Numbered from the stretch's first letter, positions 25,154 to 61,939 are shown. The stretch is 64,000 nucleotides of DNA from an uncultured Candidatus Sumerlaeota bacterium (GCA_964473105.1 CAYYNQ010000103.1:17021-81020); one strand, 5' to 3'. Numbers and translations are program-made. Notes: a model not told the origin generated them from the letters alone.

Positions 25154-28805
<3,652 letters not shown>

Positions 28806-37343: not shown

Positions 37344-37363
37344 TTTGATTTGGACGCTAACTG

Positions 37364-39665: not shown

Positions 39666-40433
39666 ATGAAATGGATACGTGAGCGTATGCTTTCGGGTGA
39701 GACCCTTGTCGGTACCATGCTGAATCTGGCTTCCCCATTTACAGCTGAGATTGCAGGGCATGCTGGTTTCGACTGGCTTCTGATCGACTTGGAGCACGGC
39801 GTTGGCGATGAGATGACTCTTGTCCACCAGTTGCAGGCACTGTCCGCAACCCCGGCTGTGCCGTTGGTGCGGATCCCTGCTAATGAGACCTGGCGTTTCA
39901 AGCGGGTCTTGGACTTGGGTGTTTTCGGTGTTATGGTCCCGCATGTCAGCAGCGCCGCAGATGCCGAGCAGGTCGCGGGTGCCATGCGCTATCCTCCAAA
40001 GGGCGTTCGCGGGGCCAATAAATCCAATCGCGCCTGTTGTTTCGGCGGAAAGGCGGGAGATTATTACCCGCATGCCAACGACAATCTGTTGTCGATTGTC
40101 CAGATTGAAACCGCCGAAGCGCTGGGCAATCTGGACGCGATCGCTGCGGTGGACGGGATCGATGTCCTGTTTGTCGGGCCGCTCGATTTGAGTGTCAGCA
40201 TGGGGATTGAAGGCCAGTGGGACGATCCGGAATTCAAAAAGGCCCTGGAGCATATCGCCGATGCTTGTCGTAAACACGGAAAGGTTGCCGGGATGCATGC
40301 AATCAGCACCGATCTACTCAAGCCCACCCAGGATTTGGGATTTACGATGATCGGCATGGCAGTTGAGAGCATCACCGTGACCCAGGCAATGAGGAATCTT
40401 TATTCTCAACTGGAAGTCGTGAAGAAGAAATAA
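39666..40433 (+). CDS. HpcH/HpaI-family 2-keto-3-deoxy-sugar-acid aldolase
   Basis: Collinear with the RhmA/GarL/HpaI type (DWLLIDLEHG, RIP, VPHV..A.DA). A GGAGG RBS precedes the ATG. Confidence 0.8.
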   Translation: MKWIRERMLSGETLVGTMLNLASPFTAEIAGHAGFDWLLIDLEHGVGDEMTLVHQLQALSATPAVPLVRIPANETWRFKRVLDLGVFGVMVPHVSSAADAEQVAGAMRYPPKGVRGANKSNRACCFGGKAGDYYPHANDNLLSIVQIETAEALGNLDAIAAVDGIDVLFVGPLDLSVSMGIEGQWDDPEFKKALEHIADACRKHGKVAGMHAISTDLLKPTQDLGFTMIGMAVESITVTQAMRNLYSQLEVVKKK

Positions 40434-40519
40434 TCGAGTTATTCTGAGTCTTGAATCTCGATCGTGAAACCCTGTATAAATCTACCTGCTCCAGAATATT
40501 ACAGAAGGAGGAAGTCGGC

Positions 40520-41353
40520 ATGGAACCCATGGAAATTGGCCTGATCACAACCATGGCCGAAGGTGTGGAAGAAACTTCGGAAACCATCAAGAAGCTTGAT
40601 CTTGGGAACATCCAGTATCTTGTAATGCCCGATGATGACATGTCGGACGAGTCAGTCGCGAAGATTCGCCGGGCCTTCGTGGATGAGGGGATTGAAATTA
40701 CGCTGCTGTTTTGTTTCTACCGAGGCATGGATTACTCGACGTTGGAAATGGGCGTGCAGACCGGAGGCTTGGTTCCCGCAAGATTTCGTTGGGAACGGTT
40801 GGACTGGACGAAACAGGTGGCGAATTTTGCGAAGGCCCTAGGTGCTTCGGCGGTCTGTTCACACTATGGCGAAATCCCCGAGGAACGTGATACTGGTGAT
40901 TACCGCGATTTGATCAACGTGACACAGGATATTTGTGATCATTGCAAGTCACTCGGCCTGACGTTCAACCTTGAAACCGGTGAGGACTCGACCCGGACCA
41001 TCCATAATTTCCTTGCCGATGTGAGCCGGGACAATCTGGGGATCAACTTCGACCCGGCCAACATGATTCTTTATGGCAAAAGCGATCCAATTGAGGCTCT
41101 GCGGGAGGTTTCCGACCACGTTCTCAGTGTCCATGTCAAGGATGGAAAATGGTCGGCCAACCCCGGTATTGAATGGGGCAGTGAGGTTCCTTTGGGCGAG
41201 GGCGAGGTCAATATTGAGGCCTTCATCAGGACGCTTCACGAGGTCGGTTATGCCGGACCACTGACAATCGAGCGTGAGGTCGAGGGTGAGGAACGAATCC
41301 GGGATGTTGCTTTGGGAATCAGGTTGCTCGAGGATATCAAGGCAAGGCTCTGA
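40520..41353 (+). CDS. Sugar phosphate isomerase/epimerase (xylose-isomerase-like TIM barrel)
   Basis: AP-endonuclease-2/xylose-isomerase-like TIM pattern (FNLETGEDS, HVKDG, EGEVNIEAFIRTL). Start placed at the ATG after the AGGAGG; the ORF is open from 40451. Confidence 0.7.
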   Translation: MEPMEIGLITTMAEGVEETSETIKKLDLGNIQYLVMPDDDMSDESVAKIRRAFVDEGIEITLLFCFYRGMDYSTLEMGVQTGGLVPARFRWERLDWTKQVANFAKALGASAVCSHYGEIPEERDTGDYRDLINVTQDICDHCKSLGLTFNLETGEDSTRTIHNFLADVSRDNLGINFDPANMILYGKSDPIEALREVSDHVLSVHVKDGKWSANPGIEWGSEVPLGEGEVNIEAFIRTLHEVGYAGPLTIEREVEGEERIRDVALGIRLLEDIKARL

Positions 41354-41379
41354 ATCCCATTCAAACAATCCATGTTTTC

Positions 41380-43263
41380 ATGTTTATGCTGAAGAGGTTT
41401 CAAGTGATATTTAATTCTCCTTTCCACTCTGTGAGTTCAAGGCTGGTTTTCCCAGTCTTTTTTCTTGTCCTGTTTTTCTTCGACCCGACCTGCGTGCAAT
41501 CGGTTAAGGACATCAGTCAATTCACCAGTCATTTCAGAGATCCCGACCGGGGTCACGCACCATGGGGTTTTTATCCGGAGGACAGTATCGCGAGTGTGTC
41601 CACAACCGAAAGCCCGGGGTTTGTGGTCATCCGCAATAAGGGTGGAGGCACGGATATCAAGGGTATCTTGGCGGAACCGATCCGTATGGACGAATACCCT
41701 GTTCCCTGGGAATTCCACATGGGTTTCATGCAGGATAAGTTCCAGGCCGTTGGCAGTGAGGGACAGGTCAATTATGCCTTCGGGGTTAATGTAGCCGTCA
41801 CGTTCTCCGACCCTTCGACCTGGCCGGCGGACCGGACACAACGCCCCCCCAATACGCGTTCCGTCCAGCTTCTGCTGGTGCACATGGGTAATGTTGGTGA
41901 GAACTTTCGGGCCGGCCTGCCCCTGGCCAGGCTGAGTGGACTGAATTCATATGACAGTTCACCCGAGGTTTTTCTTGTTTACGGCCGGGGTGATCTTGAT
42001 CCTATCGCACAGGGTAACTGGAATTTTGGGTACACCTCTGTCGGGGCTGACCTGAATAATGCAGGCAGTGGCGAGGCCGGCGGAGCAGCCGACCCGATCA
42101 TCAAGTTTCGTGTTGGCATGAATTCTTCAAACCTGACCCTGGGAGTGGGTTTTGGACCTAATATCGGCTGGAAGAGCAGGGTTATCAACTTTGGTCGGTT
42201 TGGGAAGGCGACGGGTATATGGGAGATCGGGCCGATTATCTCGCTCGACAACTGGATGGCTGAAGAACTGGGGCCGGAACTGGGGCTCACCGAGCCCCCA
42301 AGGTGGCTCAAAAGCATCAAAAGCCGTTATTCAACATCGTGGGGGGAACATGACCCGGCAACCATCGACCCATTGTTGGAGCTGTTTAGAATCCAGCCGC
42401 CAGACCCGAAAGTGCCATGTTATCTTGACTACGCGATCTTTTACCACAACGGCCCAGGCTACATTGAGCAACTTGGTGAGGAGTTTAATGTCCCGGGATT
42501 CCTGGCCGGCGAGAAGTATTATATCGAGGGCAATGTCTTTACCGAGACCTTCTCGAACCCGGGTTTCCTGACGGCAACATCGTTTGGTAATCACGGTGGC
42601 TGGGCGATGTGCCCGATTTTTGGGGGAAGCAGCATCGACCTGACCGGTGAACGTAGCCCCCCCTTCGAGGTCGAGATCGCCGCGATAACACCCGACAATG
42701 ACAAACCCTGGAACCTGTGGTGGAACATTGGAATCTGGAATGAAAAGGGCGACAAGTATGCCGGTTGGCAGCCGTGTATCAAGAATATTCCCGGTGTCGG
42801 GCGCCGTTTCACGAATTCCTTTTCCATCGATCCGGATGCCTTTGAATACCCGACCGAGATCCAGAACAGCGCGATCAACCCGAGATTCGATCCACCCATC
42901 CCGGAACTGCTCGGCCACAAGCCCCTATACTGGTTGTTACAGGTGAAGGATGAGTACCATGTCCGGGTCGGGGTGAGGGGCGACTCGGATGACCCATGGA
43001 CGTTCTCGACCGAGTGCGACACGCGGGACATATTCGGCTCCGACGGCCCGATCAGCATCGTGAATAAAAATAGTAGCGGTCCGGTACATCACACGGGTTA
43101 CAAGGAGGATGACCCTTTCGGAAAAATCGGGAAGTTCGGTTACCCGGCGTTGGTCTCTTACCAACTGCAGCCGAAGGACGGGGTTGCGGGCGTGGGAAAC
43201 GCCCCCGGTTATCAGCAGATGTTGATTGATTATATCCGTTACCGTTATGAATGTTCCGAATGA
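41380..43263 (+). CDS. Secreted ~625 aa protein of unrecognised family (family A, copy 1)
   Basis: N-terminal signal/TM. Clear paralog of 52418..54193 (blocks DIKGIL.EPIR.D.YP.PW.FHMG, WEIGPIISLD.W, NIPGFLA..KYYIEG.VF.ET.SNPG, GGWA.CPI, PWNLWWN.G, WQPCI.NIPG, YPALVS.Q, IDY..YRY). No known domain recognised. Confidence 0.75.
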   Translation: MFMLKRFQVIFNSPFHSVSSRLVFPVFFLVLFFFDPTCVQSVKDISQFTSHFRDPDRGHAPWGFYPEDSIASVSTTESPGFVVIRNKGGGTDIKGILAEPIRMDEYPVPWEFHMGFMQDKFQAVGSEGQVNYAFGVNVAVTFSDPSTWPADRTQRPPNTRSVQLLLVHMGNVGENFRAGLPLARLSGLNSYDSSPEVFLVYGRGDLDPIAQGNWNFGYTSVGADLNNAGSGEAGGAADPIIKFRVGMNSSNLTLGVGFGPNIGWKSRVINFGRFGKATGIWEIGPIISLDNWMAEELGPELGLTEPPRWLKSIKSRYSTSWGEHDPATIDPLLELFRIQPPDPKVPCYLDYAIFYHNGPGYIEQLGEEFNVPGFLAGEKYYIEGNVFTETFSNPGFLTATSFGNHGGWAMCPIFGGSSIDLTGERSPPFEVEIAAITPDNDKPWNLWWNIGIWNEKGDKYAGWQPCIKNIPGVGRRFTNSFSIDPDAFEYPTEIQNSAINPRFDPPIPELLGHKPLYWLLQVKDEYHVRVGVRGDSDDPWTFSTECDTRDIFGSDGPISIVNKNSSGPVHHTGYKEDDPFGKIGKFGYPALVSYQLQPKDGVAGVGNAPGYQQMLIDYIRYRYECSE

Positions 43264-43388
43264 TCTATAGCCATGAACCGGGTCATGGGTTGCAGGCCAT
43301 GAAGAATATAATGAGGATAAGAATATTTTCTCGCGCAGAACACGATGAGCGTTTCGTGGTCAAGTGGGTTCTGGCCCCGAATTGACTT

Positions 43389-45308
43389 TCAGTATGAAAC
43401 CAGGGGAATGATTCTGTCAGGTATGAATTGTGTTACCTGGTGCATGGGTGCCTGATTGGACCGGTAGTGCGTGCGCTCATAGATCTGATAGTAATTTCCC
43501 GTTTCACGCGGCTTGACGTCGATCACCGTGCTGCCCTTGAAGGTCAGCCCGACCTTTTCACCATTGATTGTGTAATCGTCCTCCCAGATAGGGACCGGGA
43601 ACTCCAGGATGATCCTGTCCCCGGGCCGAATTTCCTGAAAGATCAGGCGGTTGCCGTAACCGGCCGGGTCGACTTCCCTGATTTTTACACGGCCGAACAG
43701 GCCTGGGCGTTCAATACGTGACCTTACCCGGTTCTTCTCGACCCATCCGGGGATACGAACGATCACGGTATGAGCTTGCTTGTTGATCAAAACGACCTTG
43801 CCCTCGTAGGGAAGATAACTGGTGACATCCATCCATGCCGAGGCGCGGTTGAGAAAGAGATTGACGGTGGCCATTCCCCGGTCAAACCGTGTGATGCCAT
43901 GCCATGCATAATAAAGTCCCTGTGCGCCATTGACGGCACAGCATCCTCCCAGATTGGCCAGGCAGACACGGGAATGACTGCTGTGTGAAAAACCGCCACG
44001 AAAATTTTTCAGCAGCTCGTCCTCGACTGTCCCGGGTTTTGTCCCGCTGACCCGGCGCATTTTTTCAAGGTCGGTGATCTGCTGCTCGACAAGGTGGTTT
44101 CGCACGGTGTAGTCGAGATCGTCCCAGTAGTCGCCCAAGCCGGCATCACTCATTCGCACGGCATTGACGGCAAAGTCACCGGTGGCGCAGGGTTCGGGAT
44201 AACGCGCGAGGTCAACCGGGCGGCCGTAGGCCTCGGGTTTTGACCATGCGGGTGAGAAACCGAGTCGCACGATACCGTTGCGCCGGGTGTGTTCGTAATA
44301 CTCGCGTGTGAATTCCTTGAGCCAGTCACTGTTGGTGGCGATCGCCATGTCGAGCATTGCAATCAGCCCCTGCGTGCCGTTGTGGAAATGTCCCATCCAG
44401 ATCCCATGTTCGTAACCGGGGTAGCGTTTCTCATCGCTGTTCTCGGCCCACATGCCAGGCTTGAGCGAGAAGCGAAGAATTTTCTTTGCGAGCTCAATCG
44501 ATTCCTCCTCGCCGGTCATTTTGTAATGAATGGCGAGGACACTCATCAGCCGATTGGCTTCAGCACGGGCAGCGCCTTCATAACCGAGTGCATCCATATG
44601 TGGCTCGACCTCAGGGATGTAATCTGGATTGCCCTGACCGTCCTGGACCGTCCACTTCCCCTGTTTGTCGATGCCGGCTTGCATGGGGAAGAATGCCCGA
44701 TCCTCGACGTGGATCGCGACGTTACGGATACCGCGGGCGAGATGATCGATCCAGTCATCCCATTTTGGATTGCCATCGCGGGCCTTGAAATTCAGCATGG
44801 CGAAGATGGTGGTGGCATTGGTCTGGGGGTAGGACGTGCCCTTGAGCTTGCTGGCAGTGACCGGGTAATAGAGCTGTCCGTCCTCATCAATAGCCTTAAG
44901 GAGGGTCTTCATCAGGTTGTATTCGATATCGAGGTTGTGATCGGTGCCGACGGCCTGTCGCAGCATGGGTAGTTGTCGTGCGTTCTTGGGGGAGATATCC
45001 CAGTTTGGGTAATAAATTTCGGGCTTTTTATCATACTGGATGCTTCCCACGGCGTAGGCATGGCTGGGGTCGAGGCTGTTGGTGAGGATGTTAACGGAAT
45101 ATTCCATCTGTCCGACGAGATCAAGCGTATCGGGGACAATGGCCTTGTGTCGTTCCCCAGTCGGATACATACTCTCGATGTTAAGAACTTCATCGATGTT
45201 AAGCTTGGAGGAGGCATTCGGGGAAAATGAAATATTGAAAGCCAGAAGTGCCGCAATGGTCATGGAAGAAATACGAAAAAGGAAACGATTCATGGTTAAA
45301 GTCCCCAC
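43389..45308 (-). CDS. Secreted DUF1680/GH127-like (beta-L-arabinofuranosidase-type) six-hairpin glycosidase
   Basis: Signal peptide and ~640 aa. E372-P-C374 and C456-C457 are spaced like the Zn/catalytic Glu-x-Cys ... Cys-Cys of GH127 (HypBA1 E338/C340/C417/C418). Confidence 0.5.
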   Translation of the reverse strand: MGTLTMNRFLFRISSMTIAALLAFNISFSPNASSKLNIDEVLNIESMYPTGERHKAIVPDTLDLVGQMEYSVNILTNSLDPSHAYAVGSIQYDKKPEIYYPNWDISPKNARQLPMLRQAVGTDHNLDIEYNLMKTLLKAIDEDGQLYYPVTASKLKGTSYPQTNATTIFAMLNFKARDGNPKWDDWIDHLARGIRNVAIHVEDRAFFPMQAGIDKQGKWTVQDGQGNPDYIPEVEPHMDALGYEGAARAEANRLMSVLAIHYKMTGEEESIELAKKILRFSLKPGMWAENSDEKRYPGYEHGIWMGHFHNGTQGLIAMLDMAIATNSDWLKEFTREYYEHTRRNGIVRLGFSPAWSKPEAYGRPVDLARYPEPCATGDFAVNAVRMSDAGLGDYWDDLDYTVRNHLVEQQITDLEKMRRVSGTKPGTVEDELLKNFRGGFSHSSHSRVCLANLGGCCAVNGAQGLYYAWHGITRFDRGMATVNLFLNRASAWMDVTSYLPYEGKVVLINKQAHTVIVRIPGWVEKNRVRSRIERPGLFGRVKIREVDPAGYGNRLIFQEIRPGDRIILEFPVPIWEDDYTINGEKVGLTFKGSTVIDVKPRETGNYYQIYERTHYRSNQAPMHQVTQFIPDRIIPLVSY

Positions 45309-47671: not shown

Positions 47672-48682
47672 ATGTCAGGAGTCAGAGCTGAAATGAACAT
47701 GGGATTTGTAGACCTGCATGTGAACGGTATTGCCGGAACTGATTTCACAAAGCCGGACCTGACTGGTGATGATGTTTCTCGGGTCGCTGCATATCTGTAT
47801 CGGCACGGTGTGGCGGGATTCTGCCCGACGGTCATAACAACGTCGATGAGTACATATAGGCGTTGCCTGCCGGTTCTGGCGGGCCATAAACATTCACCTG
47901 GCGAGGCGAAGGTCTTGGGCATTCATGTTGAGGGTCCGTTCCTAAGTCCGCAGGACGGCCCGCGTGGGATTCACCCGGCTGATTTGATGCGACAACCATC
48001 GATCAACTTGTTTGATCAATTGCGTTCCTGGGCCGATGATAAAATATTGATGCTGACACTTGCTCCCGAGTTGCCAGGCTCGGTTGAGTTGATAAGGCAT
48101 GTCCGGACACAAACCACGGCAAGGATTTCAATTGGTCACACGATGGCGCCATCCGATGCTATCAGGGCTGCTGTCGATGCCGGCGCGACTTTGGCAACCC
48201 ATCTGGGAAACGGTTTGGCGAGCATGATTCACCGGCATTATAATCCGCTCTGGCCACTACTAGACGACGATCGTCTTTCGGCAATGTTGATCACCGACGG
48301 ATTCCATCTCCCGGCCGATATGGTCAGGACCTGCCTGCGTGCGAAGGGGGCAAGACGTTCAATCGTAACGAGCGATGTTGTCCATATCTCGGGCTTGGAC
48401 CCGGGCGATCATATAATGCATGGGGTGGAAGTCGTACTTGAGGTGAATGGTCATTTGCATCGCAGGGGTGCGGATAATCAGTTGGCCGGGTCAGGATGCC
48501 ACATGTTGGATTGCATGAACCACCTTTCATCACTTGAGATTTTGAATGAGAAGGAATTGCGGGCCGTTGGTCGGACGAATGCACTAGATGTGCTGGGTTA
48601 TGATGGGGAAATGGAAGATGATCTGGTTGTGTATGAAGGCGGGAAATTCAAAGTCAGGAAGATCAGTGACGGATCTGCCTAG
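47672..48682 (+). CDS. nagA: N-acetylglucosamine-6-phosphate deacetylase-like amidohydrolase (short form)
   Basis: DLHVNGIAGTDF (E. coli NagA-type DxQ/HxNG), HVEGPFLSP, HLGNG, and a C-terminal beta-segment. 336 aa, with no long N-terminal beta-sandwich. Confidence 0.65.
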   Translation: MSGVRAEMNMGFVDLHVNGIAGTDFTKPDLTGDDVSRVAAYLYRHGVAGFCPTVITTSMSTYRRCLPVLAGHKHSPGEAKVLGIHVEGPFLSPQDGPRGIHPADLMRQPSINLFDQLRSWADDKILMLTLAPELPGSVELIRHVRTQTTARISIGHTMAPSDAIRAAVDAGATLATHLGNGLASMIHRHYNPLWPLLDDDRLSAMLITDGFHLPADMVRTCLRAKGARRSIVTSDVVHISGLDPGDHIMHGVEVVLEVNGHLHRRGADNQLAGSGCHMLDCMNHLSSLEILNEKELRAVGRTNALDVLGYDGEMEDDLVVYEGGKFKVRKISDGSA

Positions 48683-52417: not shown

Positions 52418-54193
52418 TCACCTGGAATCGCCGTAGCGATAATAGAGGTAATCGATCATAAACCGCTGGTAATAGGGCCAGTTGCCCGCACCCCATCCCT
52501 TCTGTCCGACATGGGAACCCTGGAAAGACACCAGTGCAGGATAGGAAAACGCCGCAATCTTGCCGAACATGTCCTTCGAATCGAAGGGTTCGGAAAAAAC
52601 CCACGGGTCCTTCTTGTCGGCCTTGAACCCCACGCGAAGGTTGTACTGGTTCGGGATCTGGATCAGCATATAGAGCGGCCGGGCGGTCATGATTGCCTGA
52701 GTCAGCTCGGGTCCGAACTCGGGCGTGATCCGGATGTTCGGATTGACAAAGCTACCACGTTTGGGATCGAAAGCACCCGAATTACTGTAGGCGATGGCTT
52801 TCCCTGGAATATTTGTGATGCAGGGCTGCCAAGGGTGGTAGGTTCCTTCGGTATCGTAGAGTCCAACATTCCACCAAAGGTTCCAGGGTCGTTCATTGCC
52901 GGGTGGGATAAAACAGAGCTCGATCTCGAACGGGGGTTTGCGATTCCCGATCACGTCCATTTTACCCGGCCCGATCGGGCAGAGTGCCCAGCCACCGTTC
53001 ATGCCGTAGGGTGTCAGGGTCATGTATCCGGGATTGGAGTAGGTTTCACCGAACACATCGCCCTCGATGTAGTATTTCATGTCTGCGAGGAAACCGGGGA
53101 TGTTGAAGTCATCGGAAAGATGCTCGACGTTTTGCGGCCCGGATCCATAGAAGTGCATGTAGTCCACGTAATACTCAAAGCGTTTGTCAGGCACCTGGAC
53201 CTGGAAGGTGTTCTTGAGCCGGTTCAGGATCTCGATCTGTTCAGGTGAGATATCCTTCATGAGCTTGTGGTGTTCACGGAAACTGTCGATCCACATCGGG
53301 GCTTCGTTGACACTCAGTTTTTTTGCAAGCACGTCCGGGATCCAGCGATCGAGGGATATGATCGGCCCGATTTCCCAGACACCGGTGATCGGTCGCGGTG
53401 TGCTAAACTGTCTAAATTGCCATCCCGAGTCGTGGCCTGCCCCGACACCGAGTTCGATGGACTGGTTGCTGGAAAGTCCGATGGTAAAGCGGATGGAATA
53501 CTCGGCGGGACCGCCGAACCGTTTCCAGGTTCCGGAGATTGAATTGGCAAACCCGACCCATGAGTAGTTGAAATCCCAGCGGCCGTTGACCGTCTCGGGG
53601 GCGAGATCACCCCGGCCGTAGATCATGTAGACCTCAGGTGAAAAGTCACGCTGATTCATGTCGGTATGCTTGACGGCCGGCAGGCCCTGGCGGTAGTTCT
53701 CCCCCTGATTTCCCAGGTGGACGACAAACAACTGCAGTTCCTCCGTATCGGGTGGCCGTTTGGAGCGGTCGGTCGGCCAAGTGGAGGGGTCGGAATAGGT
53801 GACGGCCAGGTTTACCCCGAAGGCCCAGTTGATCTGCTCATTGACGAGTCCCTTGACCCCGAGGTAGTTCTGGAGGATTCCCATGTGAAATTTCCAGGGC
53901 AGGGGGTAATCATCGATACGGATCGGTTCCCTGAGGATTCCCTTGATGTCCTGTCCGTTTCCGTTTTCACGGATCGTGAGGTAGCCGGGATTTTCGGTGG
54001 CGGTCATCTCGCGGATGTTGGAATCGGGGGTGAACATCCAGGGGTTGAGGTTGTCACCGTCAATAAAATGCTGATTGAGTTTGCGGATATCCCGGTCGTC
54101 CCGGGCATTTGTTTCGGCCTGCGACAGGATAAGGAGGAACAGGACTACCAAACTCAGGAGTTCGGTTCTTGAATGAAACCAGGGATTATACAT
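52418..54193 (-). CDS. Secreted protein of unrecognised family (family A, copy 2)
   Basis: Paralog of 41380..43263 (roughly half identical by eye, collinear). Signal peptide after the Met at 54193; the ORF is open to 54292. Confidence 0.75.
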   Translation of the reverse strand: MYNPWFHSRTELLSLVVLFLLILSQAETNARDDRDIRKLNQHFIDGDNLNPWMFTPDSNIREMTATENPGYLTIRENGNGQDIKGILREPIRIDDYPLPWKFHMGILQNYLGVKGLVNEQINWAFGVNLAVTYSDPSTWPTDRSKRPPDTEELQLFVVHLGNQGENYRQGLPAVKHTDMNQRDFSPEVYMIYGRGDLAPETVNGRWDFNYSWVGFANSISGTWKRFGGPAEYSIRFTIGLSSNQSIELGVGAGHDSGWQFRQFSTPRPITGVWEIGPIISLDRWIPDVLAKKLSVNEAPMWIDSFREHHKLMKDISPEQIEILNRLKNTFQVQVPDKRFEYYVDYMHFYGSGPQNVEHLSDDFNIPGFLADMKYYIEGDVFGETYSNPGYMTLTPYGMNGGWALCPIGPGKMDVIGNRKPPFEIELCFIPPGNERPWNLWWNVGLYDTEGTYHPWQPCITNIPGKAIAYSNSGAFDPKRGSFVNPNIRITPEFGPELTQAIMTARPLYMLIQIPNQYNLRVGFKADKKDPWVFSEPFDSKDMFGKIAAFSYPALVSFQGSHVGQKGWGAGNWPYYQRFMIDYLYYRYGDSR

Positions 54194-54456
54194 TGGTCGG
54201 GCCTTTCTGGCCTTGATCCGGAAAGACGACTTTTTTTCTAGATGCATCAATGAATTGGGAACGGGGGTACCCCCCCTTATTTTAAAGATCATCTTTACAG
54301 TGTCATGACAAGCAAAATTCTGCGTGAAACGAACCGAAGTATCAACCCGGAAATCATGTTCGTCGAAAAATCATCCGTGGTTAAAATCATTGCGGACTGA
54401 CTGGAAGTACATCAATACATAATCCCATGCATGCCAGGCAGGAAAGCCCGGCCTAG

Positions 54457-54747
54457 ATTTTCGGGGTTGCGCTGATCTCGGCGGTCGGGTCTTTCATTTT
54501 CGGGTTCGAGTATGGTGATCATATCCGGTGTCATCTTGTTCCTGGAGGAGGGATGCGGGCTGTCCGGCCAGACGGTGGCCCACGCCTTTGCGACGACCCG
54601 GGAGAACTTCATCAAGCTCCACGACATTTCGCTGGCAGTTTCTTGATATTCACCGGGATCTCCATGCTGGCCTTCCTTTTCAATTTCAAGATGGTTTCAG
54701 AAACCAAGAAAAAAACACTTGGTAAAATCTCAGCCTTTTGGACTTAA
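54457..54747 (+). pseudogene. Possible 3' remnant of an MFS sugar-porter gene
   Basis: The reading frame ends ...GSFLIFTGISMLAFLFNFKMVSETKKKTLGKISAFWT. This resembles sugar-porter TM12 plus the PETKGK(T/S)LEEI tail. The upstream part is not transporter-like in any frame. Confidence 0.25.
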
Positions 54748-56520
54748 GAGTGCAGGAGGACGGGCACCCGAACCTGAATCATGATTGTTCAGGTCCTGAT
54801 ATGTGTTGATGTCATTCTCATAACGCAAAGCGAGGTCATCCATGTCACCCTTGAGAAAATAGATGCGTTGGTGGGTCAGGCGCGAACCGCCGGCTGGAAT
54901 CGAAGAATCCGGATTACAGTGCAGGCAGGAATATTCACGGTTATTGAACAACCGGTTTGGCGGGCCCGTCAACACCACTGGGCAGACCAGCCATTCCCCG
55001 TCTCGTGAACGGGTTGAGATAAAAGGGCCATTGACAACAGTGGGGTCTCTCCCTGAGGGATCGCTTGAAGGTAGCATGTGGTTTTGGCAGTAGATGCGGT
55101 CGTTGACGTGATGCCAGATTTCCTCCATCGACTTCAAGCCACGATCGGTCGAGATCAAGGTGCGTACACCGTCGTGGTCGCGGAAGTTGGGCGCACCTGC
55201 GAGACTCAGGCACATTTCCTGGGATGTCGAGACCGTGTTCGGTCCGTTGTTTCGGCAGTCGAAGATGATATCGATGCTGTCAAGCCCGGTCTCGACCCGG
55301 AGACGGGCGTGCATTTCCCAATCCTCCTTTTGCGTCGTATATTCGACATGCGTGAAATCAGGGCTGAAATTGAACGTCTGGACTGGGGAATTCCACTGCC
55401 AGTAACACTCAAGCATGACGCCGAATCGGTCATCGGGAAAATATGGTACACGAACCTCAACCATCCACAGTGTCATCTCTCCGCGTATTTCTTCGGGGGT
55501 GAAATCGTCGGGCCATCGTCTTGGATCGCCGGGAGGCGCATCGCGGATTGATTCAACCGAGCGGGTGGGCAGAATACGGATATTTTCCTTGAGATATATT
55601 CCCGGATCGGGAGGCTGCGGCCGATGAGATTCCCGTGATAAGGGCCACGGGGCGCGACGTTGATATGGATCCGTATCGGTTTGGGCCATTGACTTGTTCG
55701 GAAAGTCATCCGGCAGGTCCATCGCGCAACGGAATCCGGAGTAGGGCTGGTTGAATAATTTCGAGGCGAGCATCGACCCGTTGCCACCGGGATGGCCGAT
55801 GTGCAGTGCACTGACAAACTGCCAGGGCCGGGAAAAAATGAAACCTCCGCCCTTGGTGATGATACAGTATTCAAAACCTTCTGCGCGTGCCCCGTCCACG
55901 TATTCAGGCACATTTCCGGCCATGTCCATCACGCCATAGATACTGCGGTCTAGACCGAACGAACCCACGGGTGAGGTTTCAGGATTCATGGGCCGGCCTT
56001 GCAAGTCATCCATCCTGCAGGCGTGCGGGTGCCAGGTGTTGCCCCACGGCCACAAACGTCCATCCGTTCCTCGTGCGGCCTTCTCCCATTCGGCCTCCGT
56101 GGGCAGGCGTTTTCCGGCCCAGTTTGCATAGGCGCCGGCGTCTGCATGATCAATTCCGACGACGGGATGATCGGCCCGTTCTTCGGGGTATTCCGCGATG
56201 ATCCAGTTCAGGGGTAGACGATACCCGGTCGCCTCAGTGAATTCGCGGTACTGTTGGTTGGTGACCTCGAACCGGTCGATCAGGAACGCAGGCAGTTCGA
56301 TTTCTCGAGAGGGGATGTTTGCACACAGGTCCGGGTTGATCTGGTAGGTCTCAGAGAGTTTCTGTATTTGATCACTTGTCAGTCCGGACAGGAATATGCC
56401 CGCAGGAACGAGAACCATGTCTTTGTGTAATGGTGTGTTATGAAATGTACCAGCCGTGAATCCATTCATGGAAATGGCAATAAGGCAGAACACCATGGAT
56501 CGGATGAATATGTTTTCCAT
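54730..56520 (-). CDS. Secreted FGE/SUMF1-fold domain protein lacking the catalytic Cys pair, with a C-terminal ~330 aa domain of unknown function (family B, copy 1)
   Basis: Signal peptide. FGE-sulfatase domain (RLPTEAEWEKAARGTDGRLWPWGN...GFRCAMD) with no Cys at the FGE active-site positions. The C-terminal domain is shared with 56840..58537 (NFRDHDG.RT, LFNN.EYSC.H.NP, QRIYF..GD...LA.RY). Confidence 0.8.
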   Translation of the reverse strand: MENIFIRSMVFCLIAISMNGFTAGTFHNTPLHKDMVLVPAGIFLSGLTSDQIQKLSETYQINPDLCANIPSREIELPAFLIDRFEVTNQQYREFTEATGYRLPLNWIIAEYPEERADHPVVGIDHADAGAYANWAGKRLPTEAEWEKAARGTDGRLWPWGNTWHPHACRMDDLQGRPMNPETSPVGSFGLDRSIYGVMDMAGNVPEYVDGARAEGFEYCIITKGGGFIFSRPWQFVSALHIGHPGGNGSMLASKLFNQPYSGFRCAMDLPDDFPNKSMAQTDTDPYQRRAPWPLSRESHRPQPPDPGIYLKENIRILPTRSVESIRDAPPGDPRRWPDDFTPEEIRGEMTLWMVEVRVPYFPDDRFGVMLECYWQWNSPVQTFNFSPDFTHVEYTTQKEDWEMHARLRVETGLDSIDIIFDCRNNGPNTVSTSQEMCLSLAGAPNFRDHDGVRTLISTDRGLKSMEEIWHHVNDRIYCQNHMLPSSDPSGRDPTVVNGPFISTRSRDGEWLVCPVVLTGPPNRLFNNREYSCLHCNPDSSIPAGGSRLTHQRIYFLKGDMDDLALRYENDINTYQDLNNHDSGSGARPPALLSPKG

Positions 56521-56839
56521 TCACGCCTGTTACACGAGAATACTGAAATAATCAACATTATCCTGTATCCAAATAAATCGGGATACGGCCTTGTTCCCTT
56601 GCTGTGAAGGGATTGCGGGTTGATGTCCAGAATTCTGCGGGCATTCCGGCATGTCATATATCATGTCGGTTCGTTTGCCAGAATCCTGATATCAATTTTG
56701 GATAGGGTATATGATGAAGTGACGTCAGCCCTGTTCTTGGAAGTTCCAATCACAGTCACAAAGCAATGAAAATATGTGCAAATCTGTTCCTTATGGGTTA
56801 CAAGGATCATCAAGCTCAAGAAGGTATCGGAGGCGAAGC
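56521..56839. promoter_or_regulatory. Shared divergent promoter region between the two family-B genes
   Basis: Non-coding stretch between the divergent paralogs. Contains a perfect 8-bp palindrome TGACGTCA at 56720..56727 and a GGAGG RBS before 56840. Confidence 0.4.
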
Positions 56840-58537
56840 ATGCAGCATGCGAAGACAGGGTTACTATTCATTCTTGTTCTGGCTTCATTCATGCCCTTTC
56901 ATGTGATGTCGAGGCCACCCTTGCCTGCGACCGATGGAATGGTTCTGGTCCCGGCGGGAAAATATACGATGGGCACCTCGAAAAAACAGCAGCTGAAATT
57001 TTCGGAACAGTATCGCATTCATCCCGATATCTTTGAGATTCGGCCGCGCCGCGAAGTAATTGTTGCCGCCTTCTATATTGACGAGCATGAAGTCACGATA
57101 GGGGAATATCGGGATTTTATGGAGGCAACCGGTCATCGTGTGCCGATCATCTGGCTGGAACACGGGTTGCCCCGGGGAATGGATGAGCACGCCGTTACCG
57201 GGGTGGATTACGAGGATGCGGAGACCTATGCGCAATGGGCCGGAAAACGCCTGCCCACTGATGTTGAATGGGAGAAGGCTGCACGAGGTGCCGACGGCAG
57301 AATCTTTCCATGGGGCAATCACTGGGAACCCGGGGCATGTAATGCTGATAGCGGGGGAACGGATGCGATGATCACACATCCGGCGGTGGTCGGTTCGCAT
57401 CCGCGTGATCGAAGTGTCTATGGTGTTTATGATATGGCCGGGAACGTGATGGAATGGGTGGGGTATGCAACCCCCCCGGGTCTGGTACGTGGTGGTAGTT
57501 TTGCGCAGGCCGCACCTTGGCAGTTCAGTTGTTCTGCACGCGTGATCCACCCCACCAACCACGGAGGACTGGGATACATCGGATTCCGATGTGCAATGGA
57601 CGCCGGTCGGGTCACCCGGACTACCTCGCGCCTGCCGACCAGACCCGGGATCAAAAAAACTCCCGATCCGGGTTCAGTCTCAAACAAGGTCCGCAGACCC
57701 GATGCAACGTTGATCGGTTCAGAGTCGATCCGGATCTTTCCTGTATACGAACTGGACCCGGACAGGAAAAGTTACCAGAATGCAATGTTCCATTATATTG
57801 GAGATCTGCGTGAGGAGAAACTGACTACAGAGGAAATGGTACCCTGGCGATTCGAGGCACAGATCCCCTACATGCCAGATGACCGTTTCGCATTTTTCTT
57901 TGAGGGACAGTATGAGCGTCCAATGGAGGGGTTATGGTTCAGCGATGATTTTACGGAGGCGAAAGTCCGGACTGATTCCACAGGCATTGAGTCCCGGGTC
58001 TCCATCAGGTGCGGCAGGGATTTCATCGATATCGAGCTCAGTGCGATCAATCATACCGACAGCGATTACCACACGACCATGGAGATTTGCTTTCAACCCT
58101 TGTGGGCGCCCAATTTTCGGGACCACGATGGTTTGCGCACATACATGCTGACCGATGAGGGCTTCAGGAGTACAAGCCAGATCGAGCACCGGGTGATGGA
58201 GCGGTTTTGGTGCCAACAGTACCTTGTCGAGAAGCCTCTAGGCGGGGGCTATGAGGGTACGCCCGGATTAAATGGGTCGATGGTTGCAGTCGTATCACGC
58301 GATCACCGGTGGGCGATCTCGCCGGCAGCCATTTCCAGTCGGCCTTACAGACTATTCAACAACTGGGAATATTCATGTATCCATAGCAATCCGATTTCGG
58401 GTGTTAAAGGTGGAGAGAGCAGACAGTCGAGACAGAGGATATATTTCCATCATGGTGATTTGAAGTCGCTGGCGGAACGTTATGCCGGTGATGCGGAGTT
58501 TGACGTGAAATATCTCCAACATGCCGAACACCCATGA
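56840..58537 (+). CDS. Secreted FGE/SUMF1-fold domain protein with the same unknown C-terminal domain (family B, copy 2)
   Basis: RLPTDVEWEKAARGADGRIFPWGN...GFRCAMD and the shared C-terminal domain. Start at MQHAKT after the GGAGG; the ORF is open from 56774. Confidence 0.8.
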   Translation: MQHAKTGLLFILVLASFMPFHVMSRPPLPATDGMVLVPAGKYTMGTSKKQQLKFSEQYRIHPDIFEIRPRREVIVAAFYIDEHEVTIGEYRDFMEATGHRVPIIWLEHGLPRGMDEHAVTGVDYEDAETYAQWAGKRLPTDVEWEKAARGADGRIFPWGNHWEPGACNADSGGTDAMITHPAVVGSHPRDRSVYGVYDMAGNVMEWVGYATPPGLVRGGSFAQAAPWQFSCSARVIHPTNHGGLGYIGFRCAMDAGRVTRTTSRLPTRPGIKKTPDPGSVSNKVRRPDATLIGSESIRIFPVYELDPDRKSYQNAMFHYIGDLREEKLTTEEMVPWRFEAQIPYMPDDRFAFFFEGQYERPMEGLWFSDDFTEAKVRTDSTGIESRVSIRCGRDFIDIELSAINHTDSDYHTTMEICFQPLWAPNFRDHDGLRTYMLTDEGFRSTSQIEHRVMERFWCQQYLVEKPLGGGYEGTPGLNGSMVAVVSRDHRWAISPAAISSRPYRLFNNWEYSCIHSNPISGVKGGESRQSRQRIYFHHGDLKSLAERYAGDAEFDVKYLQHAEHP

Positions 58538-58597
58538 CTCAAACTGCAACCCCGGTTGCAATGAAAAGGCAAAAAAACAGGTTACGGGTTTGCGTAG

Positions 58598-58786
58598 TTA
58601 CGGCTTTGGTTGGGGCGGCATCGGAATGGGAGTATAGACCGGATTGACCACGTGCGGTGGCACGGGTGGAACCACGGCCTCGAGGGTGGGTTTGCCATAG
58701 GTCTTGCCCTTCATTCTCTGCTTCCCGATCACGACTGCCGTTAGGAGGAGTGCTATGACCAAGATTATTTTCCCTTTATTACCCAT
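58598..58786 (-). CDS. Small single-pass membrane protein with a Pro-rich tail
   Basis: 62 aa with a hydrophobic helix (IILVIALLLTAVVI) and PPVPP repeats. Lies last in a co-directional three-gene run. Confidence 0.4.
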   Translation of the reverse strand: MGNKGKIILVIALLLTAVVIGKQRMKGKTYGKPTLEAVVPPVPPHVVNPVYTPIPMPPQPKP

Positions 58787-58878
58787 CTTTTGGGTTCTCC
58801 CTCAACAGTGAATTTTTCCAAACATGCCGGTGATTGCCTGAGTTTAATTTCGGTTATTCCGCTGAAATTGGCAAGCGT

Positions 58879-59370
58879 TTAATGTTGCGAAACCGACTCC
58901 ATATCCACGAGGACAACATGCATATTGGGCATGGGTGGAAATGTCTGAATGGAAGTGATGCTGGAAATGGTTCCAGTGAAAGTAACGGTCAGGCCTGGTC
59001 TGAGCATGCCCGATTCACGCGGTTTTAGGTTGAATTCCACGTTTGGGGTGCGGTGATTATCCATCGCAACATGGACGGTTCCGTCCATGTTGATTTCGAT
59101 GAGTCTTCCGGTCCATAACACCTTGGTTCCCCTGAGGCTGTTTGAATATTGTTCAAGTCTTTTGGTGGTGTACATGTTGGGTGTTTGGTCGTAAATATCG
59201 GTGTAGGTTAGGCCAGATATCTGCGTATCTGGACTGTCGGATCGTGCAACGTGTTGCGTTGGAGATCCGCATGCTAGGAGAATTAGTGAACAAAGCAGGG
59301 GTTCAGCCAGCTTATATCCAAGGGCTTTCCGGATGGGCAAAATAGTTTTGGGTCGGGCGGCGCGAATCAC
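58879..59370 (-). CDS. Hypothetical lipoprotein
   Basis: Lipobox LILLACGS. 163 aa. Begins 5 bp after the upstream hydrolase stop. Confidence 0.6.
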   Translation of the reverse strand: MIRAARPKTILPIRKALGYKLAEPLLCSLILLACGSPTQHVARSDSPDTQISGLTYTDIYDQTPNMYTTKRLEQYSNSLRGTKVLWTGRLIEINMDGTVHVAMDNHRTPNVEFNLKPRESGMLRPGLTVTFTGTISSITSIQTFPPMPNMHVVLVDMESVSQH

Positions 59371-59375
59371 GTTGT

Positions 59376-60368
59376 TTATTTCACGAGAAAACGGACTGTC
59401 TTGTCGGAAGTGTAGAATATGTTTCCGCCATGGCCGTGACCGATAAGGGTTTCTAGTTCCATGTCGCCACCCAGTTTGCGGTAACGTTGGAGGAGCTCAA
59501 TGGAGTTTTCCCTGATCGGTATTCCCGCATCGCTGTTACCGTGGACATGTAGGATCCTGACCCCAGCATCGGCGAGGGGCTTGAGGTTTTCAATCGGATT
59601 GAATTCCTTCAGGCGTTTATGCAGTTCTTCGGGTGTCATCATGAACCCCAGACGTGTGTGTGTGATTCGCCCGGTTCCACAGACCTTGTCCAGTCCAGGC
59701 CAGCTCCGCATGTCGGTTGCGGGAAAGATTCCCATGATTCTGTCCACCGCATGAGGATGGCGCCAAGCCCAGGCATAGGCCGTGAGACCTCCGCTGCTTT
59801 GGGCCAGAAATCTCGTGCGAGGATTCATTTTATGTTTGCGGACCAGAGTCCGGTAGAACTCCTGATAAACATCAACCCCCTGTTGGCTTCCACAGGTGAT
59901 GGCCACGTCGATTCCGGCAACATGAAATCCCCGTGCAAGAAATTCCTCGACATAATAACGATGCATAACAACGCTTTGGCCCTTTTCATCGGGCCGCATC
60001 ATGGCAGTGCCCACCTCGCCCTTCGGGCGGCTTTCGACGGCAAGCCACGATGGGACAATCCAGATCCACCTCCGTTCCGTATCGACCGGGCCGTTGGGCC
60101 GAATGAGGAACCCCTTCCAGTCGTCAATGAGGATATTCATGAGTTTCCCGTTCCGATACGTCAGGTCGTGTTGACTGAGGTCGGAGAGCCCACCGTAATG
60201 TCTGATCACGTCAACATCAGTCATCTGGCGTGGGCCTAAGTCTGCATCTGTTATCCTGCCGGGAATCCATGATCCACATGCGGTTATAAGCGGGATTATC
60301 AGCAGGGTGGTGATGCCATGCCGGAAAAAAAATGAGGTTGGGATGTTTTTTCTGTGACGGGGTATCAT
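59376..60368 (-). CDS. Alpha/beta-hydrolase lipoprotein (esterase/lipase-like)
   Basis: Lipobox ITACGS, nucleophile elbow AQSSGG, and a C-terminal HGNSD...GHGHGG region. Confidence 0.65.
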   Translation of the reverse strand: MIPRHRKNIPTSFFFRHGITTLLIIPLITACGSWIPGRITDADLGPRQMTDVDVIRHYGGLSDLSQHDLTYRNGKLMNILIDDWKGFLIRPNGPVDTERRWIWIVPSWLAVESRPKGEVGTAMMRPDEKGQSVVMHRYYVEEFLARGFHVAGIDVAITCGSQQGVDVYQEFYRTLVRKHKMNPRTRFLAQSSGGLTAYAWAWRHPHAVDRIMGIFPATDMRSWPGLDKVCGTGRITHTRLGFMMTPEELHKRLKEFNPIENLKPLADAGVRILHVHGNSDAGIPIRENSIELLQRYRKLGGDMELETLIGHGHGGNIFYTSDKTVRFLVK

Positions 60369-60601
60369 GTTCGACTTATGCTTTCCGAGGTCGTTTGTTG
60401 TGATGTGTGATACAGATTGTCATGGAATCATGGGGAGCATGTCTCATGGCTTCTATCTTTATGCCGATTGCGTCCTGTAGTGTCAACAGACCGGTTACAT
60501 GCGGGGTTTGAAGCCGCATTCATCATGATTCCTGTTGCGAGGGGAATTGTGAACGGGATACTCTCGCGAGTTCAAGAGTGGGTGTCTGTCAGGAGTGGAA
60601 T

Positions 60602-61939
60602 ATGAGATCGACTCATGGAGTGATGATTCTAACATTATTTGTGCTTCTAGGGGAGGAATCCCCGTGCCGTGCCCAGCAAGATATTGACGTGCCACCGAGG
60701 CATGGTTCAATGGATGATGACGGTTCAGGGACTACAAAACTGCCTTCCAAATTGGTGGCCCCTCCAATGAATGAACAGGTCAGGGAATATCTTGGGCGCG
60801 TCATCTACACCCGTGAGGAAGTCCAGAGGTGGATCAAGGGGGATTATTACCTTGATATCCATGACCCGTTGATGGGCTGGATACACCACGAGGACCGTAT
60901 CCCGGCCGGCATGGACGGGTCTTTTGCGGTCAACACCTATGGCCCAAGTGGCGCCCGTCACATGATCCAGCATGCCGACAAATCATGTCGTATTAATACC
61001 TACGGAAACAGTTTTACCCATTGTGACCAGGTCAATGATGGGGAAACCTGGCAGGAATACTTGGCTGCTCATCTGGGTGAACCGGTCAGGAACTGGGGCC
61101 TGAGCGGACACTCGGTTTACCAGATGTATGTGCGCATGAAGCACGAAGAGAAACGACATCCCTCAAAATACATGATTGTGAACATCTATAGTGACGACCA
61201 TTACCGAAGCGTCTATGGATGGCCTGGGATTGCAGTCGGCACGCATCCGGACGAGATCCTGATCGGGGCACACCGGCGTCCGCCGATGCCATGGGTCGAG
61301 GTCAATCCCTCGACGGGAAAATTCATCGAGCATGTCAACTTATGCTCCGATCCGGAAGACCTGTATCGTATGTGTAACCTTGACTTTGTCGTGGAACATT
61401 TCGGCCGGGGACTGGTTCTGAGTGCGTATATCGGCCGGCGTAACCTGAGACGTGGACTTCCTGAATACAGTTATGATGACATCAGGAGACTGGGACAAGA
61501 ACACGGGCTTGACTTGAAGGTCGATTCTGCGGAAAGTCTCCGATCTTCCATCGACCGGATCTACAAGGTTGCGGCGATCTATGCCAGCAAGCGGGTTGTC
61601 GGGATGATGGAGACGTTTGCTGCTGACTACGCCCGGAAAATTCTTTATGTCCTTTCCTATACCTCTCAGGATTTGATGCTGTCGCTGGATTGTAACGAGC
61701 GGGTTGATCATGAATTTGTTGATTTCCTGGAGTCTGAGGGACTGCCGTATGTCGACTTGCTCGAGGCGCACCGCGAGGAGTTCGGCCAGTTTGAGATGAC
61801 GGTTGAAGAGTATGCCGATCGATATTATATCGGGCATTACAGGCCGATTGGGAACCACTTCACGGCCTTTGCGATTAAGGATAGGCTGGTCGAGATGCTT
61901 GAGTCGAAACCACCGTCCTACAACCTTGATTTAGAATGA
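60602..61939 (+). CDS. Secreted SGNH/GDSL-like hydrolase-fold protein, variant block I GNSFT
   Basis: Signal peptide (MRSTHGVMILTLFVLLG). NTYGNSFTHCDQ (GDS-to-GNS), WGLSGHS and a C-terminal GHY. The ORF is open from 60578. Confidence 0.55.
   Translation: MRSTHGVMILTLFVLLGEESPCRAQQDIDVPPRHGSMDDDGSGTTKLPSKLVAPPMNEQVREYLGRVIYTREEVQRWIKGDYYLDIHDPLMGWIHHEDRIPAGMDGSFAVNTYGPSGARHMIQHADKSCRINTYGNSFTHCDQVNDGETWQEYLAAHLGEPVRNWGLSGHSVYQMYVRMKHEEKRHPSKYMIVNIYSDDHYRSVYGWPGIAVGTHPDEILIGAHRRPPMPWVEVNPSTGKFIEHVNLCSDPEDLYRMCNLDFVVEHFGRGLVLSAYIGRRNLRRGLPEYSYDDIRRLGQEHGLDLKVDSAESLRSSIDRIYKVAAIYASKRVVGMMETFAADYARKILYVLSYTSQDLMLSLDCNERVDHEFVDFLESEGLPYVDLLEAHREEFGQFEMTVEEYADRYYIGHYRPIGNHFTAFAIKDRLVEMLESKPPSYNLDLE

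Follow-up and report, generated by a model that had tools for sequence, protein, structure and literature searches.

Gene content of the rpoN-hemA interval

The window analyzed here is a 64,000-nt stretch of DNA from an uncultured Candidatus Sumerlaeota bacterium, in which positions 39666-61939 (~22 kb) harbor a candidate glycan-processing neighborhood centered on three exported protein families: a distant relative of the GH127/GH146 glycosidases and two families, termed A and B, each present in two copies. Listing of open reading frames (ORFs) together with family scans confirmed that this stretch is flanked by rpoN and hemA, with the boundaries given in the first-pass annotation. The interval contains 13 credible genes in addition to one housekeeping gene, lepB, which had been omitted from the earlier gene list. 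The features are as follows.

37364-39040, + strand: rpoN, with all three sigma-54 domains present
39666-40433, + strand: HpcH/HpaI aldolase (PF03328, E = 2e-42)
40451-41353, + strand: xylose-isomerase-like TIM barrel, AP_endonuc_2 (PF01261, E = 6e-31)
41380-43263, + strand: family A copy 1 (A1), exported, 627 residues, no sequence match in Pfam, NCBIfam or PDB
43389-45308, - strand: GH127/GH146-like putative cysteine glycosidase, exported, 639 residues, assigned from a clade profile and zinc-site residues
45499-47565, + strand: BT1017-family esterase, 688 residues, twin-arginine motif SRRTLLK (6GOC, E = 1e-49)
47672-48682, + strand: NagA-like amidohydrolase core, 336 residues, no signal peptide (TIGR00221, E = 3e-48)
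48869-49711, - strand: signal peptidase I, lepB (PF10502, E = 2.5e-34; TIGR02227)
49992-51695, - strand: sodium:solute symporter, SSF (PF00474, E = 2e-37)
52418-54292, - strand: family A copy 2 (A2), 624 residues, 43% identity to A1
54730-56520, - strand: family B copy 1 (B1), exported, 596 residues (PF03781, E = 3e-39, residues 33-209 only)
56774-58537, + strand: family B copy 2 (B2), 587 residues (PF03781, E = 2e-41)
58879-59370, - strand: small lipobox protein, 163 residues, motif LLAC-GS
59376-60368, - strand: lipobox alpha/beta hydrolase, S9-like, 330 residues (PF00326, E = 6.5e-6)
60578-61939, + strand: exported 453-residue protein, no family match in Pfam, NCBIfam or PDB
62147-63469, - strand: hemA, the right-hand boundary

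The two family B genes are divergently transcribed. The 39 kb upstream of the stretch consist mostly of ordinary genes assignable by Pfam, such as gyrB, purL/purQ, DAHP synthase and homoserine dehydrogenase, so that the stretch is genuinely enriched in exported proteins that resist assignment. Nucleotide composition is uniform over the window (GC 0.50-0.56); the stretch does not stand out in composition, and a horizontally acquired island was therefore rejected. In agreement with the first-pass annotation, no sulfatase, SusC/D or TonB-receptor family was matched among the window ORFs scanned.

Family A is predicted to adopt a tandem jellyroll fold

The two copies of family A, A1 and A2, are 43% identical over their full length (E = 1e-171). 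As had been claimed, the family cannot be placed: searches of Pfam 2025, NCBIfam 2026 and PDB sequences found nothing, whether made with one sequence or with a profile of 46, and its two halves searched separately in Pfam gave no match even at E ≤ 10. A word-index search retrieved 171 relatives that are unnamed or labeled "hypothetical", the few organism labels among them being Planctomycetota metagenome-assembled genomes (MAGs). A genome scan yielded 57 loci, all from MAGs and mostly of Planctomycetota, with some bins labeled Sumerlaeia or Terriglobia.

The AlphaFold (AF2) model of A1 is confident (predicted local distance difference test score, pLDDT, 86.8; predicted template modeling score, pTM, 0.85) and comprises two concanavalin-A-like β-jellyrolls. 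Foldseek search against the PDB revealed similarity to laminin LG4-5 (LG45), the C-terminal domain of GH43 xylosidases, GH16 glucanases and agarases, and the lectin VIP36, with probabilities of 0.98-1.0 but E values of only 1e-6 to 1e-4 and template modeling (TM) scores of at most ~0.5. The N- and C-terminal halves are weakly homologous to each other (hhalign, E = 3e-5), with the strand PWEFH of the first half aligned to PFEVE of the second. Residues Glu430 and Glu432 are nearly invariant and form an E430-x-E432 motif on a strand of the second domain. The GH16 catalytic motif ExDxxE is absent and no GH16 sequence match was found; the resemblance to GH16 is at the fold level only. The possibility that family A is a DUF1080 (3-keto-disaccharide hydrolase) protein was rejected, as hhalign against the DUF1080 domain of locus L019 gave a probability of 0.1%. 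In its model, family A shares the fold of the concanavalin-A-like lectin/glucanase superfamily (GH16, laminin LG, L-type lectins, the GH43 C-terminal domain and DUF1080), but differs from its members in the low TM scores and in having no sequence relation to any Pfam family. Judged from the model, it is a new sequence family of a known fold common to lectins and glycanases/lyases, and sequence and model are compatible with either role.

Family B combines an FGE-like domain with a previously unclassified domain

B1 and B2 share 39% identity over their full length (E = 1e-131), which bears out the earlier description of two copies for this family as for family A. No whole-protein match was found in Pfam 2025, NCBIfam 2026 or the PDB, where only the N-terminal domain, which has the fold of the formylglycine-generating enzyme (FGE; PF03781, E = 3e-39 for B1 and 2e-41 for B2), could be recognized; beyond this domain family B proved as unplaceable as first reported. 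The AF2 model of B2 (pLDDT 85.4) consists of the FGE-like domain, a disordered linker (residues ~285-310), an all-β domain (residues 320-560) and a terminal helix. Foldseek search with B2 returned CalU17, ToxD, FGE and pFGE, with TM scores of ~0.65 relative to the target for CalU17, ToxD and FGE and an E value of 1e-14 for 1Y1E. By sequence, the top solved relative is ToxD (E = 1.3e-19 over residues 82-230), whereas the best full-domain alignment (residues 137-280) is to pFGE/SUMF2, marginally below ToxD at E = 1.7e-19; pFGE/SUMF2 is not known to have catalytic activity.

Downstream of the GGS/GGG motif the sequence is FAQAAPWQFSCSAR in B2 and FIFSRPWQFVSALH in B1, and inspection by eye against human FGE showed that neither has a cysteine at the FGE catalytic positions, which we take to be Cys336 and Cys341 of the human enzyme. 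Family B proteins are therefore likely not sulfatase maturases, which is a likely reason why no sulfatase accompanies them. Many planctomycete proteins annotated as "FGE-sulfatase" may likewise not be sulfatase maturases, and family B offers a likely explanation. Compared with FGE and its fold relatives (SUMF1, pFGE/SUMF2, EgtB, PvdO, ToxD, CalU17 and PorK/GldK), family B shares the N-terminal fold but lacks the catalytic cysteine pair and a nearby sulfatase, and carries an extra C-terminal all-β domain absent from all of them.

This C-terminal domain of ~280 residues, termed domain X, is not in Pfam. The C-terminal 296 residues of B1 gave no Pfam match and only two word-index matches; a HMMER search of 1.84 billion representatives retrieved 349 relatives at E ≤ 1e-3. 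Domain X occurs alone, in proteins of ~250-300 residues, or fused to FGE-fold, LamG, GDSL, creatininase or GH129/NPCBM/CHB_HEX modules. Across 66 sequences one cysteine and one histidine are invariant (C535 and H537 in B2), and D416, N426, C439, D450, R455, S508, N530, Y557 and R569 are nearly so. Profile comparisons showed no relation of domain X to family A or to the GH127-like profile, and such a kinship was rejected.

Some further occurrences of family B and domain X were recorded. Proteins P0194, P0264, P0157 and P0171 carry domain X together with a creatininase-family amidohydrolase, GH129/NPCBM/CHB_HEX modules (in a protein of 1456 residues), LamG or a GDSL lipase, and a stand-alone creatininase gene (L066, 3961-4824) lies two genes downstream of a 68% identical orthologue of the GH127-like gene. 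Separate ORFs encode the FGE part and the domain X part of a family B homologue in locus L067 (9378-11143). Genes for an IS110 transposase, a DnaG-like primase, ParB and DNA polymerase A surround this homologue, a setting that resembles a mobile element or prophage; neither family A nor a GH127-like gene lies close by.

The putative glycosidase is a distant GH127/GH146 relative that keeps the zinc-site residues

The GH127-like protein gave no Pfam match at E ≤ 0.1 and no phmmer match in the PDB. Its relatives suggest a connection to known enzymes: among 34 aligned relatives, 12 match PF07944, the GH127 catalytic domain (best E = 1.3e-8), and 17 match PF20736, the middle domain, and a PDB search with the clade profile gave E = 0.011 for the GH146 structure 6EX6 and E = 0.86 for 4QJY. 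A faint match to the aceric acid hydrolase model of NCBIfam was also seen for the window protein (E = 0.015). In the clade alignment C374, C456 and C457 are invariant and E372 is kept in at least 90% of the 34 sequences; the segment E372-P-C374 of the window protein aligns with "cEtCa" of 6EX6.

Members of GH127/GH146 include HypBA1, a β-L-arabinofuranosidase, BT1003, an aceric acid hydrolase, and the DagA 3,6-anhydro-D-galactosidases; the known GH127 substrates contain furanosyl, branched-acid or anhydro sugars. The E-x-C and C-C motifs of the GH127-like clade match the zinc site of this family, to which BT0349 also belongs; the window protein is very distant from these enzymes, and the alignment of the acid/base residue is not secure. 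The DagA enzymes are from Zobellia. In GH127 catalysis, the zinc is held by a (Cys)3-Glu site, one of whose cysteines is the nucleophile (PMC8106489). Since the residues of this site are kept, the cysteine nucleophile appears to be kept as well in this divergent clade, which supports the assignment of the window protein as a distant GH127/GH146 relative and putative cysteine glycosidase. The earlier label of a GH127/DUF1680-like glycosidase is supported at the level of distant kinship and zinc-site residues, but the protein has no Pfam or PDB match of its own.

A scaffold in the European Nucleotide Archive (ENA), apparently from the same genome, carries a run of Ns inside the GH127-like gene (L001, 13239-13251, equivalent to window positions 44618-44658). 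The calls of 402 and 239 residues for this gene are caused by these Ns; the window copy is intact, and a split or pseudogenized gene was rejected.

The three core families are linked in other genomes

Family A served as seed for 59 loci and the GH127-like clade for 78 metagenome loci; family B was used as a third seed, and 135 related loci were compared for the control. The core trio co-occurs across Planctomycetota metagenomes, with family A usually present in two to three diverged copies. GH127-like homologues were found in 7 of the 59 family-A-seeded loci: directly adjacent to family A in L005, L013, L015, L051 and L057, and within 10 kb in the remaining two. In locus L065 three family A genes are followed by a 72% identical GH127-like orthologue on one strand with gaps of no more than ~30 bp; the third family A gene, which immediately precedes the GH127-like one, is orthologous to A2 at 67% identity.

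Family B is tied to both partners. It adjoins family A in L035, L068 and L151, with A directly upstream of B in L035 and L151, and in L068 orthologues of B1 (66%), B2 (72%) and A2 (82%) lie side by side. The GH127-like stop codon overlaps the start of the family B gene in L149/L150, and the two genes adjoin in L123. A further link is a fusion, P0124, a single 1083-residue protein read on two contigs, in which family B (residues 1 to ~575; 51% identical to B1) precedes a GH127-like part (residues 592-1069) that keeps the E-T-C and C-C motifs. P0124 is encoded at 885-4136 of locus L147; the last part of its GH127-like region is found in a different frame, in the ORF that follows (4264-4401), and this points to a frameshift or a sequencing error close to the C-terminus.

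Genes of the proposed cytoplasmic route also recur. The HpcH aldolase is found near GH127-like genes in L051, L081, L093, L100 and L114; among the GH127-like-seeded loci it is present in four, with a fragment in a fifth. Diverged AP_endonuc_2 genes are found with family A in L002 and with family B in L148. In L148 family B is translationally coupled to an AP_endonuc_2 gene, behind which lie genes for a 2-hydroxyacid dehydrogenase, another AP_endonuc_2 protein and a major facilitator superfamily (MFS) sugar transporter; this module (4819-14081) also precedes two family A genes in L002 (1-9975), and may represent a cytoplasmic route alternative to that of the window. The L002 module additionally has GFO_IDH_MocA and two Metallophos genes.

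The remaining families of the stretch recur more sparsely. An esterase homologue lies ~5 kb from family A in L019, a 40% homologue of the 163-residue lipoprotein directly follows a GH127-like paralogue in L066, and a 49% homologue of the S9 hydrolase is near a GH127-like gene in L125. The 453-residue protein has homologues close to family A or GH127-like genes in L005 (31%), L130 (47%) and L094 (41%). L051 combines family A, the GH127-like gene, a PIG-L deacetylase, a 51% aldolase homologue and two sialidase-like BNR proteins. In total, five of the nine non-seed families of the stretch recur in the 135 related loci, compared with 3 of 28 window genes outside it (Fisher one-sided p = 0.012), and these three all belong to large families; lepB, rpoN and hemA have no homologue there.

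These links bear on whether the grouping is mere chance, with A and B simply abundant planctomycete secreted proteins whose neighbors carry no meaning. Planctomycete genomes do contain many unassigned exported proteins and few operons, and the neighbors of family A are heterogeneous. The fusion of B to the GH127-like enzyme and the repeated adjacencies contradict such an explanation, as do the overlapping stop and start codons in L149; independent lineages, at 35-82% identity, show direct adjacency again and again, and the control comparison points the same way. We consider a chance grouping highly improbable. The fusion and the repeated adjacency tie both A and B to the divergent GH127-like clade, and literature searches within the searchable library on GH127 or DUF1680 in Planctomycetes, or together with FGE, found no description of such an association.

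Accessory enzymes of the stretch

The HpcH/HpaI aldolase scores 164-207 bits against the GarL, HpaI and RhmA equivalogs, far below the cutoffs of 369-441; it is a clear member of the HpcH/HpaI class II pyruvate aldolases without an equivalog-level specificity. It is presumably cytoplasmic, no signal peptide being seen in its sequence. The neighboring gene, first described as a sugar-phosphate isomerase, does encode a TIM-barrel enzyme, but one assignable only to the generic AP_endonuc_2 family. Its best solved relative is 3TVA (E = 2e-56), a structural genomics entry with no assigned function. The gene ends 27 bp upstream of A1; its call on the ENA scaffold is 277 residues, and the true start is likely at 40520.

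The esterase was recognized through its N-terminal half, of which residues 115-380 align with chain residues 164-420 of 6GOC, the catalytic module of BT1017 from Bacteroides thetaiotaomicron (E = 1.3e-49). The GASGGG segment aligns with GGSGGG (motif GxSxGG) of 6GOC, the positions of Asp352 and His388 are matched by the Asp in GGDWT and the His in "eapHnyn", and the equivalent of Ser282 is also kept, so the catalytic module and the triad are common to both proteins. BT1017 is the founding pectin methylesterase acting on rhamnogalacturonan II (RG-II), and its DUF3826 domain is dispensable for catalysis (PMC7939467). The window esterase differs from BT1017 in its twin-arginine signal, the lack of DUF3826, a C-terminal half of ~290 residues without any match, and its location outside a Bacteroidota polysaccharide utilization locus (PUL). 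Residues 401-688 gave no Pfam match even at E ≤ 10. Of the proposed Tat-exported double esterase, the twin-arginine motif and the esterase thus stand, while the second half matches nothing. A double alpha/beta hydrolase is unproven: the halves are not significantly similar and share only short colinear motif echoes, ARIGCTGASGG and ARIVGRKGAGG.

The NagA-like protein scores 164.7 bits against TIGR00221, below the cutoff of 225.65, and covers model positions 54-325 of 380 with the N-terminal segment missing; it has no Pfam match, but the barrel motifs HVEGPF, GHT, THLGN and TDG could be identified by eye. The SSF symporter matches only superfamily-level NCBIfam models, its nearest solved proteins are SGLT sugar transporters, and it is the candidate importer. 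Between these two genes sits lepB (TIGR02227, 123.5 bits against a cutoff of 47), which probably stands outside the glycan system. The small lipobox protein has no family match. The S9-like lipoprotein hydrolase was compared with the S9 protein of L065, and the two are unrelated. For the 453-residue protein, the label of an SGNH-like hydrolase could not be upheld: there is no match in Pfam, NCBIfam or the PDB, and no similarity to the GDSL lipase of the window.

A proposed modular glycan-processing neighborhood

From the gene content, the folds, the conserved catalytic residues, the neighborhood links and the fusion described above, we infer the biochemical steps and the substrate discussed here. 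We lean, with slightly better than even confidence, toward a modular, loosely organized glycan-processing neighborhood with an exported core of three families (GH127-like, A and B), and not toward a transferable island or a fixed operon. An acidic glycan would lose its methyl or acyl esters outside the cytoplasmic membrane, through the lipoprotein hydrolase and the BT1017-family esterase. With its lectin/glucanase fold, family A might bind or cut the chain, family B could target or assist the glycosidase, and the GH127-like enzyme would release a terminal unusual sugar. The SSF symporter may then import the product, which the TIM-barrel enzyme and the HpcH aldolase would convert via a 2-keto-3-deoxy acid into pyruvate and an aldehyde, and the NagA-like enzyme could deacetylate an accompanying amino sugar. 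This scheme is drawn by analogy with carrageenan loci, in which a GH127 enzyme frees an unusual sugar that is then processed to a 2-keto-3-deoxy acid and cleaved by an aldolase. The core of these loci is indeed a GH127 enzyme and a dedicated route ending in a 2-keto-3-deoxy-acid aldolase (PMC5698469).

Several observations weigh against such a neighborhood. The full 22-kb arrangement was found in no other locus, where at most three or four of its families occur together; what is conserved are the sub-modules A plus GH127-like, A plus B, B plus GH127-like and GH127-like plus aldolase, and most inter-family links come from one to few loci. The synteny comparison asked for at the outset thus recovered parts of the arrangement but not the whole. 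The partnership is also facultative. Family A is present in only 4 of the 78 GH127-like-seeded loci, or 3 of the 47 of at least 6 kb, and these loci hold the 453-residue protein twice and the S9 hydrolase and family B once each, so that the GH127-like clade is larger than its partnership. Apart from these partners, the genes next to family A are of many kinds, among them DUF1501, SASA esterase and cupin genes. Within the stretch, lepB interrupts the genes, and genes on both strands with intergenic gaps of 100-700 bp limit co-transcription to short runs. No regulator, kinase or dehydrogenase that would complete the catabolic route lies within it. No catalytic activity is assignable to A or B from sequence or model, and the GH127-like protein of the window falls below every Pfam threshold. 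The NagA-like, SSF and TIM-barrel genes have no tblastn homologues at E ≤ 1e-5 in the related loci.

The main alternative starts from the same facts. Only the core trio, perhaps together with the aldolase, would form a functional unit, and the NagA-like, SSF, TIM-barrel, lipoprotein and BT1017-like esterase genes would be bystanders, so that no single 22-kb system exists. The mixed orientation and long gaps, the position of lepB, the three families without homologues in the 135 related loci, and the single recurrences of the esterase, the S9 hydrolase and the small lipoprotein all agree with this possibility. It accounts less well for the recurrence of the non-seed families above the control and for the diverged AP_endonuc_2 genes found with A in L002 and, in translational coupling, with B in L148; moreover, esterases, an importer and cytoplasmic sugar-acid enzymes are what a glycan locus needs. 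We give this alternative an appreciable but minor chance. The original proposal of a glycan-utilization system is accordingly supported in part, for the carbohydrate-related content and the recurrence of the families together above control, but not for the block as a conserved unit, which moreover encloses lepB.

For the substrate of this neighborhood, first described as perhaps pectin-, arabinogalactan- or amino-sugar-like, two conjectures can be made. The BT1017-type and GH127-type enzymes, the faint aceric acid hydrolase match and a weak apiosidase-family neighbor in L005 incline us toward an acidic glycan with branched sugars, similar to pectin or RG-II. The SASA esterases, BNR sialidase-like genes and PIG-L deacetylases of related loci, together with the NagA-like gene, point to an acidic amino-sugar glycan. 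A different target has also been weighed, namely glycoproteins or glycopeptides (for example hydroxyproline-arabinofuranosides) or the envelope glycans of the cell itself in place of an environmental polysaccharide, with B binding a peptide or small molecule and A acting as a lectin. FGE-fold proteins bind peptides or amino-acid derivatives, the structural matches of family B are FGE, EgtB, OvsA, ToxD and CalU17, and lectins and laminin LG domains are among the best matches of family A. In addition, the GH127 enzyme HypBA1 acts on β-arabino-oligosaccharides of hydroxyproline-rich glycoproteins (PMC8106489). The companions of the core speak against such targets, since they include an esterase of the uronate-ester family of BT1017 and carbohydrate esterases (SASA); domain X is elsewhere fused to GH129/NPCBM and LamG modules, and no peptidase is consistently associated. 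We regard a glycoprotein or envelope target as improbable.

Comparison with known systems and implications

The stretch resembles the PULs of Bacteroidota for RG-II and carrageenan in its clustered exported glycosidase and esterases, importer and cytoplasmic sugar-acid enzymes, and has two enzyme families, GH127-type and BT1017-type, in common with the RG-II PUL. It differs from them in lacking a SusC/SusD pair, a TonB-dependent receptor and a hybrid two-component or extracytoplasmic function (ECF) regulator; moreover, the block lacks conservation and encloses a housekeeping gene, and the core partners are undescribed families. As with Zobellia DagA in carrageenan loci, the GH127-like clade recurs with a pyruvate-forming aldolase; the aldolase here, however, is of the HpcH class II and not of the 2-keto-3-deoxy-6-phosphogluconate/galactonate (KDPG/KDPGal) type.

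Glycan utilization clusters, GH127, and the BT1017 and FGE folds are already known. New are two families without a database model, a domain with 349 relatives, and the linkage of both families to a divergent GH127-like clade. Planctomycetota are credited with an important part in the breakdown of complex glycans, yet most proteins that they export are functionally unassigned, and the SusCD logic by which such systems are found in Bacteroidota is missing from them. Two sets of "hypothetical proteins" can now be treated as defined families with their conserved residues listed, and with a fold for family A, and A, B and the GH127-like enzyme form a specific trio for joint expression. Should the trio prove catalytic, CAZy would gain new families, and a new route of sugar-acid catabolism might be added as well. 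A bolder proposal, which we hold only tentatively and think rather doubtful, is that A and B found new carbohydrate-active families, a tandem-jellyroll glycanase/lyase and an FGE-fold/domain-X accessory or catalytic module, respectively. Together with a new GH127-like subfamily they would constitute a largely Planctomycetota system for a glycan with a furanosyl, branched-acid or anhydro sugar, whose monosaccharide would be catabolized by an undescribed route via the xylose-isomerase-like enzyme and the HpcH aldolase.

Other features of the window

An Rfam scan of the window gave no match. The sigma-54 promoter consensus has 41 matches against 31±6 expected, which is no excess, and none of them is well placed. 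A two-mismatch match to the sigma-54 -24/-12 pattern brought to light a 26-nt direct repeat, TGGAACGATTCTTGAAT..., at 37136-37161 and 37327-37352; the copies are 85% identical, 191 nt apart, and sit in the ~770-bp gap upstream of rpoN. An ORF for an IstB/DnaC-like AAA+ ATPase (10023-10814, + strand; PF01695, E = 1e-15) has no adjacent IS21 transposase and could be a helicase loader or an insertion sequence (IS) remnant. The ORF of the GDSL-like lipase (25154-26287, - strand) overlaps the 3' end of the gyrB ORF (26217-28781, - strand) by ~70 nt, and its GTG start has probably been called too far upstream.

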